Shown here: in pieces, positions 9,390-63,257 of the stretch
Layout: every line of letters begins with the position of its first letter
Numbering within the stretch: position 1 is the stretch's first letter
NCBI RefSeq assembly: GCF_058153355.1
Contig: NZ_CM177019.1
DNA: 64,000 bases
Reading direction: 5' to 3' (one strand)
Made by a program: the position numbers and the translations under genes
Notes under the pieces: generated by a model
Told to the model about the DNA's origin: nothing
The model's input: only the letters and a program-made list of their open reading frames with translations
Database searches by the model: none

Positions 9390-9404
9390 CATGGATTGTA
9401 TAAA

Positions 9405-10229
9405 ATGGATAAACCAAAGGCGTACTGCTGCCTGCTTCTCCCCTGCTTTCTTTTCCTTTCGGCCTGTACCGTTGATATCAGCCAGCCAGACTCATCAGCC
9501 ACAGCGGTAGATGCCGAGGCAAAAACATGGGCAGTCAAATTCCAGCATCAAAGCTCTTTCACCGAACAATCAATAAAAGAAATAACAGAACCTGATCTCA
9601 AACCCGGCGATTTACTGTTCTCCTCAAGCCTCGGGGTAACCTCATTTGGTATCCGCGTCTTCAGCACTTCCTCAGTGAGCCACGTTGCAATCTTTTTGGG
9701 AGATAATAACGTTGCAGAAGCGACAGGAGATGGCGTCCAGATTGTTTCCCTTAAAAAAGCGATGAAGCATAGTGATAAGCTTTTCGTCTTACGAGTCCCG
9801 GATCTTACCCCGCAACAAGCCACAGAAATTACCGCGTTTGCCAATAAAATCAAAGATAGCGGTTATAACTATCGCGGCATTGTCGAATTTATTCCATTTA
9901 TGGTGACTCGCCAGATGTGCTCACTGAATCCGTTCTCCGAGGATTTTCGCCAACAGTGCGTCAGCGGCCTGGCGAAAGCGCAGTTAAGCAGTGTGAGCGA
10001 AGGAGACAAAAAGTCGTGGTTTTGTTCGGAATTTGTCACTGATGCATTTGCCAAAGCCGGACATCCGCTTACGCTGGCACAGTCTGGCTGGATTAGCCCT
10101 GCCGATCTGATGCATATGCGTACTGGCGATGTCTCTGCGTTTAAGCCAGAAACGCAATTAGAGTATATTGGGCACTTGAAGCCAGGGATTTATATCAAAG
10201 CGGGTCGCTTCGTTGGGTTGACTCAGTGA
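9405..10229 (+). CDS. yaeF: putative lipoprotein YaeF
   Basis: ORF 9396-10229; recognised as YaeF, start probably MDKPKAY at 9405 (274 aa); signal peptide with LSAC lipobox. Confidence 0.85.
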   Translation: MDKPKAYCCLLLPCFLFLSACTVDISQPDSSATAVDAEAKTWAVKFQHQSSFTEQSIKEITEPDLKPGDLLFSSSLGVTSFGIRVFSTSSVSHVAIFLGDNNVAEATGDGVQIVSLKKAMKHSDKLFVLRVPDLTPQQATEITAFANKIKDSGYNYRGIVEFIPFMVTRQMCSLNPFSEDFRQQCVSGLAKAQLSSVSEGDKKSWFCSEFVTDAFAKAGHPLTLAQSGWISPADLMHMRTGDVSAFKPETQLEYIGHLKPGIYIKAGRFVGLTQ

Positions 10230-10235
10230 TAAAAG

Positions 10236-10340
10236 CCAGCCTCGTCCACAAAATACCGGATGAGGCGTGAGCGCCTTACCCGACCTACAAAATCGTGCTA
10301 ATACAAAATGTTGCATTATTGGCTGTAGGCCTGATAAGCG
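10236..10340. repeat. REP/BIME-type palindromic elements
   Basis: CCGGATGAGGCGTGAGCGCCTTACCCGACCTAC and GCCTGATAAGCGCAGCGCATCAGGC match the GCCGGATG.../GCCTGATGCG... REP consensus family; between convergent yaeF and nlpE. Confidence 0.8.
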
Positions 10341-10384
10341 CAGCGCATCAGGCAATTTTTCGTTTGTTTCTGTCTCAAGACGGA

Positions 10385-11095
10385 TTACTGCCCCAAACTA
10401 CTGCAATCCTGGTTTGGGTAAAATTTACCTGCCGTATCGGGCACAAATACTTTGGTCGGCGCACCAGTATCCGGATTAGCCTCAAGCGTAAAGTGACCTT
10501 CTACTGACAGTAACACTGGTTTCTCGCTGTTGCCACGGGCAGCCAAATAGCCCCGTTCCAGCTCAGCGTTATTCGCTACCATGAAACGTTTTCCGGTCGC
10601 ACAATCAGTAAAGGTTGCCGCATCAGCCATATAAAAATACATGCCGCGTAGAGTCATCGGCGTCACTGGCAGGCTGGACTTTGCCGGTTCCAGTGTATAG
10701 TTGAACTGCGATTCGATCGGATTGCCTTCACGATCGAGCATCTCCAGCGCATCTCCTTTCGCCCGATAATATGACTTTTCACCTTTACTGTCGGTTAATA
10801 CCAGTTTGTCAGCGGTTCGCGCCCATGTACCGTAGGAGGCGAAAGAGGAAGGCTCTTCACGCGCCCCCAGATAACGTTCATTCATCACCCATGTTCCGTC
10901 TTTTTCGAGGAACAGTGAGGTTTCAATTCCTTCGCAATCAGCACACGGCAGTACGCCGCGCCAGCTTTGCGGCATCGGCTTCAGTTCAGCGGCCTGCGCC
11001 GGAGAAAGCGTATCGACTTCGGCTCGATTATTACATCCCATCAGAGTAAAGAGGCTGATTACAGCCATCGCTGTCACTATCGCTTTTTTCACCAT
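10385..11095 (-). CDS. nlpE: outer-membrane lipoprotein NlpE (CutF), Cpx pathway activator
   Basis: 236-aa ORF with lipobox LMGC and CxxC motif; recognised as NlpE. Confidence 0.93.
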   Translation of the reverse strand: MVKKAIVTAMAVISLFTLMGCNNRAEVDTLSPAQAAELKPMPQSWRGVLPCADCEGIETSLFLEKDGTWVMNERYLGAREEPSSFASYGTWARTADKLVLTDSKGEKSYYRAKGDALEMLDREGNPIESQFNYTLEPAKSSLPVTPMTLRGMYFYMADAATFTDCATGKRFMVANNAELERGYLAARGNSEKPVLLSVEGHFTLEANPDTGAPTKVFVPDTAGKFYPNQDCSSLGQ

Positions 11096-11108
11096 CCATT
11101 CCTTCTTT

Positions 11109-11531
11109 TTATTCCCGACCGCCGCGCACTTTGCCGCGCAACGCCTTCACGCTTGATTTTTGTGCTTTCGATACCAGCCTGCGCTCTTTTGATGCGCGGG
11201 TAGGTCGTGTCGGTCGTCGGGCTTTTTGTTCTGTTGTTAATTCTTTAATCACTGCCACCAGCCGAGCCAGCGCCGCTTCGCGGTTCAGTTCCTGGCTGCG
11301 GTATTCCTGTGCCTTGATGACTATCACTCCATCGCTGCTAATCAGATGATGGCTGGCAGCGAGCAGGCGCTCTTTGTAATACTCTGGCAGGCTGGACGCT
11401 CGAATGTCAAAACGTAGATGAATAGCCGTTGAGGTCTTATTCACATGCTGCCCGCCCGCGCCCTGCGCACGAATGGCGGTGATCTCAAGCTCGCCATCGG
11501 GGATAGCAACATGTCGGGCAATCATAATCAT
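11109..11531 (-). CDS. arfB: ribosome rescue factor ArfB (peptidyl-tRNA hydrolase, YaeJ)
   Basis: 140-aa ORF with GGQ motif ([12 protein letters not shown]) and basic C-terminal tail. Confidence 0.93.
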
Positions 11532-12439: not shown

Positions 12440-12686
12440 TACGTATCAACCAATCAATTGTGATGATTACGATAATCTTGAGCTCGCCTGCCAGCATCAT
12501 TTAATGCTAACACTTGAGCTGAAAGATGGCGAAAAACTGCAGGGGAAGGCCAGCGATTTAGTCTCCCGCAAAAATGTGGAATATCTGGTCGTCGAAGCTG
12601 ATGGCGAAACCCGCGAGCTACGTCTGGATAAAATTACCAGCTTTAGCCACCCGGAAATCGGTACGGTGGTGGTGAGCGAGTCCTGA
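12426..12686 (+). CDS. rof: Rho-binding antiterminator Rof
   Basis: 86-aa ORF (alternative start MNDTYQ at 12432 gives 84 aa) overlapping yaeP end; recognised as Rof (YaeO). Confidence 0.9.
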
Positions 12687-12689
12687 TTG

Positions 12690-12730
12690 ACTTTCGCCGG
12701 ATGCGACGTTTGATGCGTCTTATCCGGCTT
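12690..12730. repeat. REP-like palindromic element
   Basis: GCCGGATGCGACGTTTGATGCGTCTTATCCGGC, imperfect palindrome of REP type between convergent rof and tilS. Confidence 0.7.
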
Positions 12731-23016: not shown

Positions 23017-23804
23017 TAACGAATCAGACCGCGCGTTGAGCGTGCAAAGAAATCGGTAAAGGCTTTTACTTCCGGATATGTTTCCGCCAGTTCGGCAATT
23101 TCCGGTTTCACTTCATCGAGCGTTTTACCGCTGCGATAAATCAGCTTATACGCATTGCGGATAGCGGTAATCGCCTCACGGCTGAATCCGCGGCGCTTCA
23201 GCCCTTCGATGTTGACACCGAACGGCGTTGCGTGGTTACCCTGCGCAATGACATAAGGAGGGACGTCCTGCGCCACACCGGAACAACCGCCAACCATCAC
23301 GTGTGCACCAATGATGCAGAACTGATGGACTGCGGTCATGCCGCCGATGATCGCGAAGTCGTCTACCGATACATGACCCGCCAGCGTTGCGTTGTTGGCG
23401 AGGATGCAGCGGTTACCTACCGTACAATCGTGCGCAATGTGCGCGTTGATCATCAGTAAGTTGTCGCTGCCCACCTTCGTCAATCCACCGCCCTGGACTG
23501 TGCCACGATGAATGGTGACGCTTTCGCGAATGCGGTTACGATCGCCGATTTCCACACGGGTCGGTTCGCCAGCATATTTAAGATCCTGGTTGACTTCGCC
23601 GATGGAGGCGAACTGATAAATCTCATTGTCACGGCCAATTTTAGTATGACCATTCACGACAACGTGAGATTTCAGTACGGTACCCTCACCAATTTCGACA
23701 TGGGGTCCAACGATACAAAAAGGACCAATGTGAGCATTGGCGGCAATCGATGCGCCCTCTTCCACAATGGCGGTTGGATGCACAAAGGCGGATTTATCAA
23801 TCAC
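23016..23804 (-). CDS. lpxA: UDP-N-acetylglucosamine acyltransferase
   Basis: 262-aa ORF with hexapeptide repeats; recognised as LpxA; 1-bp overlap with lpxB. Confidence 0.96.
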
Positions 23805-41253: not shown

Positions 41254-41285
41254 GGGCAGCACGACGCTGCCCGATTGCTTTCTGG
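41254..41285 (+). terminator. putative terminator after dapD
   Basis: GGGCAGCacgacGCTGCCC followed by GATTGCTTTCTGGTT (moderately T-rich). Confidence 0.55.
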
Positions 41286-41553
41286 TTCAGAATAATTCGT
41301 CCTACTCATTCTTCTTCCCCTTTTTTAAATACTTTTTCATCTTGTTTCGGACTGTCATGTAATTCGCAAAACAAAGATAAATGTGCTAATCCATCCCATG
41401 GAATATCGCCACAATAAAGCAGGTAATTTTTTGATTTTTACGCCATGATAGAAGTCTGGAAGAAAAAGGCTTTCTGCGATCACAGTCGAGCCGGGCGGGC
41501 CAGGCCAAATGCTAAAATAAGCACAATTTACTGACTCATTTTGAGGTAACGCT

Positions 41554-48648: not shown

Positions 48649-48659
48649 AGAGAGGAGAT

Positions 48660-48683
48660 GTGCCGGATAGCTTATCCGGCACA
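48660..48683. repeat. palindromic REP-like element / bidirectional terminator between yadS and erpA
   Basis: GTGCCGGATA-gct-TATCCGGCAC, perfect 10-bp inverted repeat. Confidence 0.6.
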
Positions 48684-52047: not shown

Positions 52048-52053
52048 TGATTT

Positions 52054-52082
52054 TGCCTCGCCCACCGGGCGAGGCATTTTAT
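52054..52082. terminator. bidirectional terminator between convergent hemL and fhuB
   Basis: TGCCTCGCCC-acc-GGGCGAGGCA (10-bp stem) followed by TTTT; the whole intergenic region is only 34 bp. Confidence 0.8.
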
Positions 52083-60796: not shown

Positions 60797-60889
60797 GCTT
60801 TTTCTCCGCAATATTCAGGCGCAAAAGCCCGATTTTCTGTTCTTCTGTAACAAGACAGAAGAAGATATCTCTCAAATTTACTTTGGTCT

Positions 60890-63184
60890 TCATGAATACT
60901 TTTTCGTCCGTCGCGTCGGTGCGGTATTTGCCGGATCATCCGGCCAGACGTGTTTGGGATAACGCCCTTTCATTTCTTTTTGCACCTCGCGATACGCTCC
61001 TTTCCAGAAGGCACTCAAATCTCGTGTGATTTGCAGCGGCCTTTGGGCAGGAGAAAGCAACTCCAGCACCAGCGGCACACGCCCCTGGGCGATCGTCGGA
61101 TTGGTGGCCTCGCCAAACATCTCCTGCATTCTCACCGCCAGCGCGGGCGGGTTATCTTCATGGTAACGAATGGCGATCCGGCTTCCCGTCGGCACAGTGT
61201 AATGCGCAGGCAATTCACTATCCAGACGTTGCTGCATCCCCCAATCAAGTAATCCGCGTAGCGCCTGATAAATATCGAGTGATTTCAGGCCGCGTAGCGA
61301 ATGTACGCCTGCCATATGCGGCAGTAGCCACGTTTCCAGCGTCGCCAACAAACTTTCATCATCAACCGCTGGCCAGTCATATTCTGGCAACCACCTGGCG
61401 GCGCATAACAAACGCAAGCGTAGCTGTTCCGCTTCCGGCGTCCAGTTAAGCACGCTTAAGCCTTTATCACGAACGCCGTTAAGCATCGCCTGATGCAGCT
61501 CGTCTTCTGAAGGCTTCGCCAGCGGCTGCACTTTTACCGTCAGTTGACCAATTTGCAACCGACGCCAGGCTTTCAGCGTACCTTGCGCATCATCCCACTC
61601 CACGGTGTCCGATTGCTGCACCAGCTGCGGACAGCGTTGCACTAATTCATCGATATCGACCGGTAGCGCCAGTAAAATCCGCGCATCCGGCGAGGCGCTA
61701 CCCTGCAATAATAACGGTGCGATAAGCGAACTGTCTGCCTCACCGCCGCGTACGTTTAAGCGCTTTAACAGTTGCTGGCTACGTTGCTGCCAGGCAGGTT
61801 GATTGCGCGAAAACGCCACGCCCAGATCGATATTGCCCATCCGTGGTGGCTCTTCGAGAATAGCGGCAATTTTTGCAGCGGTAGCAGCTTCGTCGTCGCT
61901 CTTTACGCTCACCAGCATTGCCGCTAAACGCGGATCGTTACCCAGCGTCGCCATTTTCTGCCCTTTCGTGCTTAGCCGTTCACCGTCCATCGCCCCCAGC
62001 ATCCGCAACAGGCGTTTCGCGGCCTGTAAATTCACGGCTGGCGGTTGATCCAGCCAGCTCATCTGCGCCGGATCGCTGCATCCCCATTGCAGTAATTCCA
62101 TCAGCAAACCGGAAAGATCGCTTTGTAAGATCTCCGGTTCACTTTGTGCGGCAGCGCGTTCTGCTTGTTCTTTGGCGATTAAATGCAGGCAGATACCCGG
62201 CTCCAGACGCCCGGCACGCCCGGCACGCTGCGTCATCGACGCCTGACTGATTCGCTGAGTAATCAACCGCGTAAGTCCTGTACGCGGATCAAAACGCGCC
62301 ACCCTTTCCTGGGCGCAATCCACCACCAGACGAATACCTTCGATGGTTAAACTGGTTTCAGCAATATTGGTTGCCAGCACCACTTTGCGCATCCCTTCTG
62401 GTGCCGGAAGGATCGCTTTTCGCTGATCGTTCAGCGACAACGCGCCATACAGCGGGCAGAGCAACACATCACTACCGATGCGCGAAGCCAGTTGTTCCTG
62501 AACGCGCTGAATTTCTCCGACACCAGGTAAAAATAACAGTAATGAGCCGCTTTCCTGATGCAGCAATTCGGCGGTGGCAACCGCCACGGCTTCATCAAAA
62601 CGCTGATGAGCGAGCAGCGGTAAATATCGGCGTTCAACCGGAAATGAGCGCCCTTCTGAGATGACGACGGGCGCTTCTGGCAGCATCTGCTGCAAGCGGT
62701 CATTGTCCAGCGTAGCCGACATAATCAGTAGTTTAAGGTCATCACGCAGACCTTGTTGCACATCGAGTAACAGCGCCAACGCCAGATCCGCCTGCAAGCT
62801 GCGCTCATGAAACTCATCGAGGATCACCAATCCAACGCCGCTCAGTTCAGGGTCACGCTGGATCATGCGCGTCAACACGCCTTCGGTAACTACTTCCAGG
62901 CGAGTATTTGGCCCGACACAGTTTTGCGCGCGCATCCGGTAGCCTACCGTATCACCTGTTTTTTCGTTAAGCAGTTCCGCCAGTCGTTGCGCAACGTTAC
63001 GCGCCGCCAGGCGACGCGGCTCCAGCAGGATAATTTTTCCGTTAATGCCGGGATGCGCCAGCAGTTGCAGCGGCAGCCAGGTTGATTTCCCGGCCCCGGT
63101 CGGCGCACTTAATAACACCTGCGGTGCACCATCGAGGGCAGCAAGTAACTCAGGTAAGACGACGGCAACGGGCAACGACGACAC
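60890..63184 (-). CDS. hrpB: ATP-dependent RNA helicase HrpB (DEAH-box); appears about 45 codons shorter than the K-12 reference I recall
   Basis: ORF track 60890-63229 (779 aa from ATG); recalled HrpB start (M)SSLPVAVVLPELLAAL corresponds to the GTG at 63182-63184, giving 764 aa; motifs GAGKST, DEFH, SAT present. Confidence 0.85.
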   Translation of the reverse strand: MSSLPVAVVLPELLAALDGAPQVLLSAPTGAGKSTWLPLQLLAHPGINGKIILLEPRRLAARNVAQRLAELLNEKTGDTVGYRMRAQNCVGPNTRLEVVTEGVLTRMIQRDPELSGVGLVILDEFHERSLQADLALALLLDVQQGLRDDLKLLIMSATLDNDRLQQMLPEAPVVISEGRSFPVERRYLPLLAHQRFDEAVAVATAELLHQESGSLLLFLPGVGEIQRVQEQLASRIGSDVLLCPLYGALSLNDQRKAILPAPEGMRKVVLATNIAETSLTIEGIRLVVDCAQERVARFDPRTGLTRLITQRISQASMTQRAGRAGRLEPGICLHLIAKEQAERAAAQSEPEILQSDLSGLLMELLQWGCSDPAQMSWLDQPPAVNLQAAKRLLRMLGAMDGERLSTKGQKMATLGNDPRLAAMLVSVKSDDEAATAAKIAAILEEPPRMGNIDLGVAFSRNQPAWQQRSQQLLKRLNVRGGEADSSLIAPLLLQGSASPDARILLALPVDIDELVQRCPQLVQQSDTVEWDDAQGTLKAWRRLQIGQLTVKVQPLAKPSEDELHQAMLNGVRDKGLSVLNWTPEAEQLRLRLLCAARWLPEYDWPAVDDESLLATLETWLLPHMAGVHSLRGLKSLDIYQALRGLLDWGMQQRLDSELPAHYTVPTGSRIAIRYHEDNPPALAVRMQEMFGEATNPTIAQGRVPLVLELLSPAQRPLQITRDLSAFWKGAYREVQKEMKGRYPKHVWPDDPANTAPTRRTKKYS

Positions 63185-63257
63185 AAAACGCTCCAGAGGG
63201 TTAACATTCTTCGCGCCACATTGTAGCATCGCGGTAATGCATAACCGAGTACCTCAC

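Follow-up and report, generated by a model that had tools for sequence, protein, structure and literature searches.

The 155-nt spacer (10230-10384) between the convergent genes yaeF and nlpE raises the question of which repetitive element it holds, and whether that element is simply the one found at the same place in E. coli K-12 with one repeat fewer. An earlier note on this DNA had described two REP-type palindromes in opposite orientations, forming a BIME-like unit between convergent genes, apparently in fewer copies than in K-12. The window, i.e. the whole stretch of DNA that was analysed, comprises 64,000 nucleotides. Within it, yaeF occupies 9405-10229 on the plus strand (ORF 9396-10229; the start at 9405 is derived from the 825-nt K-12 gene), ending with a stop codon at 10227-10229, and nlpE occupies 10385-11095 on the minus strand (an ORF that is named nlpE in annotated homologous records), with its stop codon at 10385-10387; the 3' ends of both genes adjoin the element. 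Both genes were named after their annotated counterparts in K-12 and in an E. coli record of 98% identity. With the yaeF annotated in E. coli EC42405, the window's gene shares 99.3% identity.

The window is collinear with positions 161,500-226,419 of the K-12 genome (reverse strand), with an identity of about 97%. Its dnaE is 98.8-99.2% identical to that of B2-type E. coli strains, which places the window in E. coli in the broad sense. As a separate observation, a segment at about 10001-11500, which covers the 3' end of yaeF, nlpE and arfB, reaches only 86-94% identity with K-12 and about 92% with almost every E. coli genome, in contrast to flanking genes such as dnaE (98.8-99.2% to ordinary E. 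coli). The nlpE allele of the window is common to only about six genomes (e.g., EC42405, a bovine isolate from France), and the best DNA identity of nlpE in a scan of genome contigs was about 93%. These values suggest that the segment was imported or is anciently diverged.

The two palindromes quoted earlier were recovered as CCGGATGAGGCGTGAGCGCCTTACCCGACCTAC at 10256-10288 and GCCTGATAAGCGCAGCGCATCAGGC at 10329-10353. Their opposite orientation, likewise stated earlier, was borne out by the conserved GTAG (complement CTAC) at the foot of the REP palindrome (PMC3333891), which appears as CTAC at 10285-10288 and as GTAG at 10325-10328. The REP tail motif CTTATCMGGCCTAC occurred five times in the window when up to two mismatches were allowed, whereas 0.29 occurrences were expected, and the best two matches, on opposite strands, were the REPs of the spacer; the fifth match, at 23804, lies in coding sequence and was rejected as a chance occurrence. 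An ungapped scan with the published y, z1 and z2 consensus sequences (PMC11208160, the bridge-RNA paper) yielded exactly two matches in the 64 kb, y at 10254-10288 (plus strand) and z1 at 10324-10353 (minus strand), and none in 100 simulated windows. A degenerate full-length REP pattern with up to three mismatches had no match in the window, because the y copy is too decayed and the loop lengths differ.

A BIME-1 profile was built from four copies at three unrelated loci (ybiA-rhlE, ugpB-livF and fliA-fliC) of other E. coli genomes. Searched against the window with nhmmer, it matched 10254-10367 in a single colinear alignment that spans model positions 3-116 of 118 (94 bits, E = 2.2e-28). The scan with REP/BIME consensus sequences and profiles that the earlier note had proposed as a check thus returned a decisively significant match. 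REPs are extragenic imperfect palindromes of 20-40 nt that can fold into hairpins and are present in many copies per genome. Both REPs sit between the two stop codons and are extragenic, and queries containing these REPs hit a median of at least 34-37 places per E. coli genome. BIME-1 is described as a single unit of inverted y and z1 REPs separated by a long conserved linker, L, in which an IHF site is frequently found (PMC3333891). The inverted y and z1 REPs, the long conserved linker and the single-unit arrangement of this definition are all present at 10254-10367. The preferred reading, with a probability of roughly 0.93, is that 10254-10367 is one copy of BIME-1, consisting of a y REP, an L linker and an inverted z1 REP, and located where the 3' ends of the convergent genes yaeF and nlpE meet. 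The BIME-like unit described earlier was thus correctly recognized, and its identity can be refined to BIME-1 (y, L, z1).

The copy is preceded by a left flank, TAAAAGCCAGCCTCGTCCACAAAA (10230-10253), which is common to all alleles of the y-L-z1 type in E. coli, E. whittamii and two further Escherichia species; the K-12-type allele has unrelated sequence in its place. The y-type REP (10254-10288, plus strand), with CTAC at its 3' end, is decayed and shows six mismatches to the 35-nt y consensus. As single-stranded DNA it folds into a hairpin of -7.4 kcal/mol, compared with -11.3 kcal/mol for the consensus, the weakening being due to the substitutions; none of 200 shuffled sequences folded as well. 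At least one of these changes is recent, since the closest relative, EC42405, retains G at the position occupied by A in the window's CCCGACCTAC. In the minimum-free-energy fold of the plus-strand RNA, the y REP pairs with the left flank, and no canonical hairpin is formed. The z1-type REP (10325-10353, with 5' GTAG on the plus strand) is inverted relative to y, and its consensus match (10324-10353, minus strand) has two mismatches in 30 positions. Its single-stranded DNA hairpin of -8.6 kcal/mol equals that of the consensus (-8.5 kcal/mol), and three of 200 shuffled sequences were as good. The T-rich right flank, beginning with AATTTTTCGTTTGTTT (10354-10384), is composite: 10354-10367 belongs to the repeated unit, being conserved in BIME-1 copies at other loci and lying within the profile alignment, and the rest is locus-specific.

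The two REPs are joined by an L linker of 36 nt (10289-10324), a long conserved linker being the defining feature of BIME-1 (PMC3333891). It is colinear with the linkers at ybiA-rhlE, ugpB-livF and fliA-fliC (canonical BIME-1 linker for comparison, ATTCAATATATTG). At 10301-10313 on the plus strand it contains ATACAAAATGTTG, a weakened IHF-consensus-like site in the register of ATTCAAnAnnTTG of other BIME-1 linkers. Owing to a T-to-A change, this site has two mismatches to the consensus WATCAANNNNTTR, compared with one for ATTCAAnAnnTTG. When up to one mismatch was allowed, the IHF consensus matched 49 times in the window, which is at chance level (48.5 expected), and none of these matches fell at 10301-10313. 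IHF binding to the linker, which is suggested by homology, may therefore be weakened in this copy. Taken together, the copy is partly decayed, with six changes and a weaker hairpin in the y REP and an extra mismatch in the IHF-like site.

Regarding the comparison with K-12, the earlier estimate of a spacer shorter by about one REP unit was right, the lengths being 155 and 199 nt (a difference of 44 nt). Together with the known variation of BIME copy number between strains at a given locus (PMC3333891), this difference is what would be expected if the window held the same tandem REP unit as K-12 with one repeat fewer. The alignments refute this explanation, which is retained only as a very improbable one. 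Each allele has two intact REPs, and they are of different types (z2 and y in K-12, y and z1 in the window), so the claim of fewer REP copies than in K-12 did not hold for this spacer. A consensus scan placed the K-12 z2 REP at 216102-216138 and the y REP at 216055-216089, and the same scan of the 64-kb window found no z2 REP. In K-12 the inverted z2 REP is followed by a 12-nt linker, the y REP and the L linker and then directly by the right flank, without the 22 nt that make up the body of z1 (ATAAGCGCAGCGCATCAGGCAA) and with GTAG mutated to TCTG. The unrelated sequence on the left-hand side measures 87 nt in K-12 versus 22 nt in the window, and the start of the K-12 left flank resembles, by eye, a further y REP reduced to its 3' half (GCCTTATCCGCCTTA). 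A three-REP allele of the form z2-S-y-L-z1, present in other strains, shows moreover that the two spacers are different subsets of parts, not n versus n-1 copies. The difference between K-12 and the window is thus one of composition: the two alleles hold different parts, not more or fewer copies of a single repeat.

Elsewhere in the window there is a genuine deficit of REPs relative to K-12. Over the homologous 64-66 kb, four canonical REPs were found in K-12 and two in the window. Between hemL and fhuB (52048-52081) the window has only a plain hairpin bordered by T and A runs (TTTTGCCTCGCCCACCGGGCGAGGCATTTT); the K-12 counterpart is a BIME spanning about 150 nt, made up of y and z2 REPs together with a third, degenerate one. 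The hemL-fhuB spacer shows the same alternative of hairpin or BIME as yaeF-nlpE. The feature table of the K-12 record NC_000913.3 contains no REP or repeat features for 161,500-228,000 (66.5 kb), though at least four canonical REPs are present in the sequence; REP annotation hence cannot come from that record.

Two further palindromes, after rof and after yadS, had earlier been listed as elements similar to that of the yaeF-nlpE spacer, which held only in part. Between rof and tilS (12696-12728, plus strand) there is indeed a REP-like palindrome, GCCGGATGCGACG...CGTCTTATCCGGC, which is identical in K-12 and forms a hairpin of -10.6 kcal/mol, but it lacks the CTAC tail and, with a profile E-value of 0.019, is a marginal single REP. 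The sequence between yadS and erpA (48659-48683, plus strand) is a palindrome that resembles only the outer arms of a REP, but it matched neither consensus nor profile and is a plain hairpin, not a canonical REP; it is a perfect 11-bp hairpin (-12.4 kcal/mol, z = -6.8), and the K-12 copy differs by one change in the loop. Other differences from K-12 were observed in the window. In the mrcB-hrpB spacer (about 60879-60894), K-12 has an extra palindromic repeat of about 100 nt, of the CCCTCTCCC...GGGAGAGGG type, which is absent from the window. The hrpB gene (60890-63229, minus strand) has an in-frame deletion of 45 codons at 61712-61723 relative to K-12 (residues 486-530 of K-12), and short direct repeats (GGYGCGAT) flank the corresponding segment of the K-12 gene. 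Between dapD and yaeH (41277-41403), yaeI is absent, and 127 nt of unrelated sequence stand in place of 842 K-12 nucleotides containing the whole of yaeI.

Alignment of the spacer to other E. coli genomes, which had also been proposed, revealed an allelic series among 5,426 complete genomes, surveyed with locus-specific or junction-specific queries. The y-L-z1 allele, colinear with the window, was found in 2,167 genomes (about 37-40%; the count includes at most 133 genomes with z2-S-y-L-z1 or its y-deleted derivative). The K-12 type accounts, by remainder, for about 2,015 genomes (about 37%), in agreement with evenly spaced samples of the ranking (14 of 40 and 11 of 30 rows). The y-L-z1 allele with IS621 inside the z1 REP was found in 694 genomes (12.8%), and a REP-free allele with a 29-nt hairpin, TGAAAGCCGGAGAATGCTCCGGCTTTCAA, in 549 (10.1%). 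The three-REP allele z2-S-y-L-z1 had been predicted by joining the left half of the K-12 spacer to the right half of y-L-z1, and was found in strain 1919D3 with 100% identity over 237 nt. This allele or its y-deleted derivative occurs in at most 133 genomes (at most 2.5%), a number that corresponds to a coverage of at least 80% of the z2-S-y-L-z1 query and includes a derivative from which y and a portion of L have been lost (strain T2).

Outside E. coli, y-L-z1 with the same left flank is also present in E. whittamii and in two further Escherichia species, which argues that this state is old within Escherichia; the other alleles plausibly derive from it through single REPs being gained or lost. 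No yaeF is present in E. albertii, Salmonella and several Citrobacter, and those Citrobacter and Klebsiella that have the gene show a simple hairpin only. Both in REP-free alleles and in the outgroups (Citrobacter, Klebsiella, Salmonella and E. albertii), a simple hairpin flanked by A and T runs stands at the same position. In Escherichia sp. MOD1-EC7003 (locus L013), yaeF is nearly all deleted, only its first approximately 60 and last approximately 40 nt being left, and the adjoining y-L-z1 BIME is intact.

The states observed at this spacer are the REP-free hairpin, y-L-z1, z2-S-y-L-z1, z2-S-y-L without z1, z2 and z1 with y deleted, and y-L-[IS621]-z1. One could regard them as a densely sampled natural record of a BIME built and dismantled REP by REP, a speculative view that is improbable. 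If it were true, the deletion end points and the occupancy by IS621 might show how active the REP transposase and bridge-RNA recombination are in vivo. Locus-specific BIME variability has already been described (PMC3333891), and such a view is a re-description of this known variability, with no new kind of element.

The K-12-type allele also bears on the class of the element. As K-12 has z2 joined to y by a short linker at this locus, BIME-2-like parts exist here in other strains, and the element might be taken for a BIME-2 or an atypical BIME of the gyrase-binding class, in which a short S linker connects z2 with y and the unit is usually repeated in tandem. The window, however, lacks a z2 REP, its 36-nt linker is homologous to the L linkers of BIME-1, and the element is a single unit, not a tandem; this classification is even less probable than a change in copy number.

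The REP-free alleles invite another explanation, namely that the palindromes constitute a bidirectional intrinsic terminator native to the locus, whose likeness to REPs is accidental. They lie between convergent genes, the REP-free alleles have just such a terminator-like hairpin, and a T-rich tract, recognized by eye, follows the distal hairpin on each strand (z1 and then AATTTTTCGTTTGTTT on the plus strand, for yaeF; y and then TATTTTGTGG on the minus strand, for nlpE). Chance likeness is nevertheless hardly credible, as 114 nt match a profile derived from unrelated loci with E = 2e-28 and 100 simulated windows gave no match at all. A scan for consensus terminators and promoters moreover called nothing in the spacer; REP hairpins have internal loops and fail the criteria of the scan. 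A terminator role of the BIME itself is possible and belongs to the preferred reading.

The spacer is just as improbably the source of a REP-derived small RNA (naRNA4-like) or of a small protein: the weak Rfam naRNA4 match on the minus strand (10215-10285, 23.9 bits, E = 0.35) falls well short of the 59.5-bit gathering threshold and has similarly weak counterparts on the REP-like palindrome between rof and tilS (12622-12729, plus strand; 12685-12729, minus strand), the mechanical ORFs of 65-70 amino acids that cross the spacer continue antisense to yaeF and nlpE and are made up mostly of repeat sequence, and the spacer is absent or rearranged in most genomes. Rfam has no family for REP or BIME, and its only matches in the window were the sub-threshold ones to naRNA4.

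For the REP/BIME family, protection of mRNA 3' ends, termination or attenuation of transcription and binding of IHF have been reported as roles (PMC3333891). Applied to the BIME-1 copy of the window, the mRNAs of yaeF and nlpE would both read into the element, and the REP hairpins at their 3' ends would slow the 3'-to-5' exonucleolytic decay of both transcripts, as reported for the family (PMC3333891). From the same source, the hairpins may also attenuate or partially terminate transcription. The L linker corresponds to the segment of BIME-1 that usually binds IHF, and IHF binding is a possible addition. Following the family model (PMC3333891), the element would owe its origin and later remodelling to the REP-associated Y1 transposase and to recombination. 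Read most economically, BIME-1 most likely supplies 3'-end hairpins to both genes, and the simple hairpins of REP-free alleles and outgroups fit 3'-end formation as the job of the spacer. Against pressing these roles too far stand the empty terminator scan of the spacer and the non-canonical fold of the y REP in plus-strand RNA. About 10% of E. coli genomes, moreover, are without any REP at this position, so the element is dispensable.

The z1 REP additionally contains, at 10325-10335 on the minus strand, an empty natural target of IS621, ATCAGGCCTAC. It is an exact match to the observed natural target, an 11-mer with a CT core (PMC11208160). At precisely that point, i.e. between GTAG and AGGCCTGAT, the homologous loci L004 and L008-L010 carry an IS621 insertion. 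The count of 694 occupied z1 REPs among the 5,426 complete genomes was obtained with a right-junction query that contained locus-specific flank. A left-junction query gave 1,261 genomes and was rejected as an over-count, since it also matches IS621 in other BIME-1 copies. Strain 2013C-4538 (L010) has a different variant of the BIME-1 linker to the left of IS621, which hints at gene conversion or an independent event.

REP and BIME elements, their variability from strain to strain and their targeting by IS621 are all textbook knowledge, and nothing at this locus departs from known biology. The value of the result lies in annotation: BIME-1 (y-L-z1) is the appropriate label for the spacer, in place of a K-12 array minus one REP, and where REP loci differ in length among strains, a change in copy number should be concluded only after alignment. 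With five or six discrete alleles across E. coli, the locus is a convenient typing marker, and in this strain its z1 REP is a naturally empty landing site for IS621.

Among known systems, the spacer of K-12 MG1655 (216,055-216,138; z2-S-y-L, an atypical BIME) is the same locus and shares the homologous y REP, L linker and right flank, but differs in having an extra z2 REP and another left flank, in having lost the body of z1, and in length (199 versus 155 nt). Regarding the IS621 sites in REPs (IS110 family, bridge-RNA-guided), the likeness consists in the exact target within z1 and the difference in that the site of the window is empty. The closest agreement is with BIME-1 (also known as RIB or RIP), the IHF-binding class of REP mosaic. 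Here the window's y REP is decayed and its IHF-like core has one extra mismatch (ATTCAA to ATACAA), and the points of likeness are the inverted y and z1 REPs with CTAC and GTAG facing the linker, the long conserved L with a weakened IHF-consensus-like site in the usual register, the single extragenic unit at the 3' ends of transcription units, and the colinearity of this unit with the copies at ybiA-rhlE, ugpB-livF and fliA-fliC.
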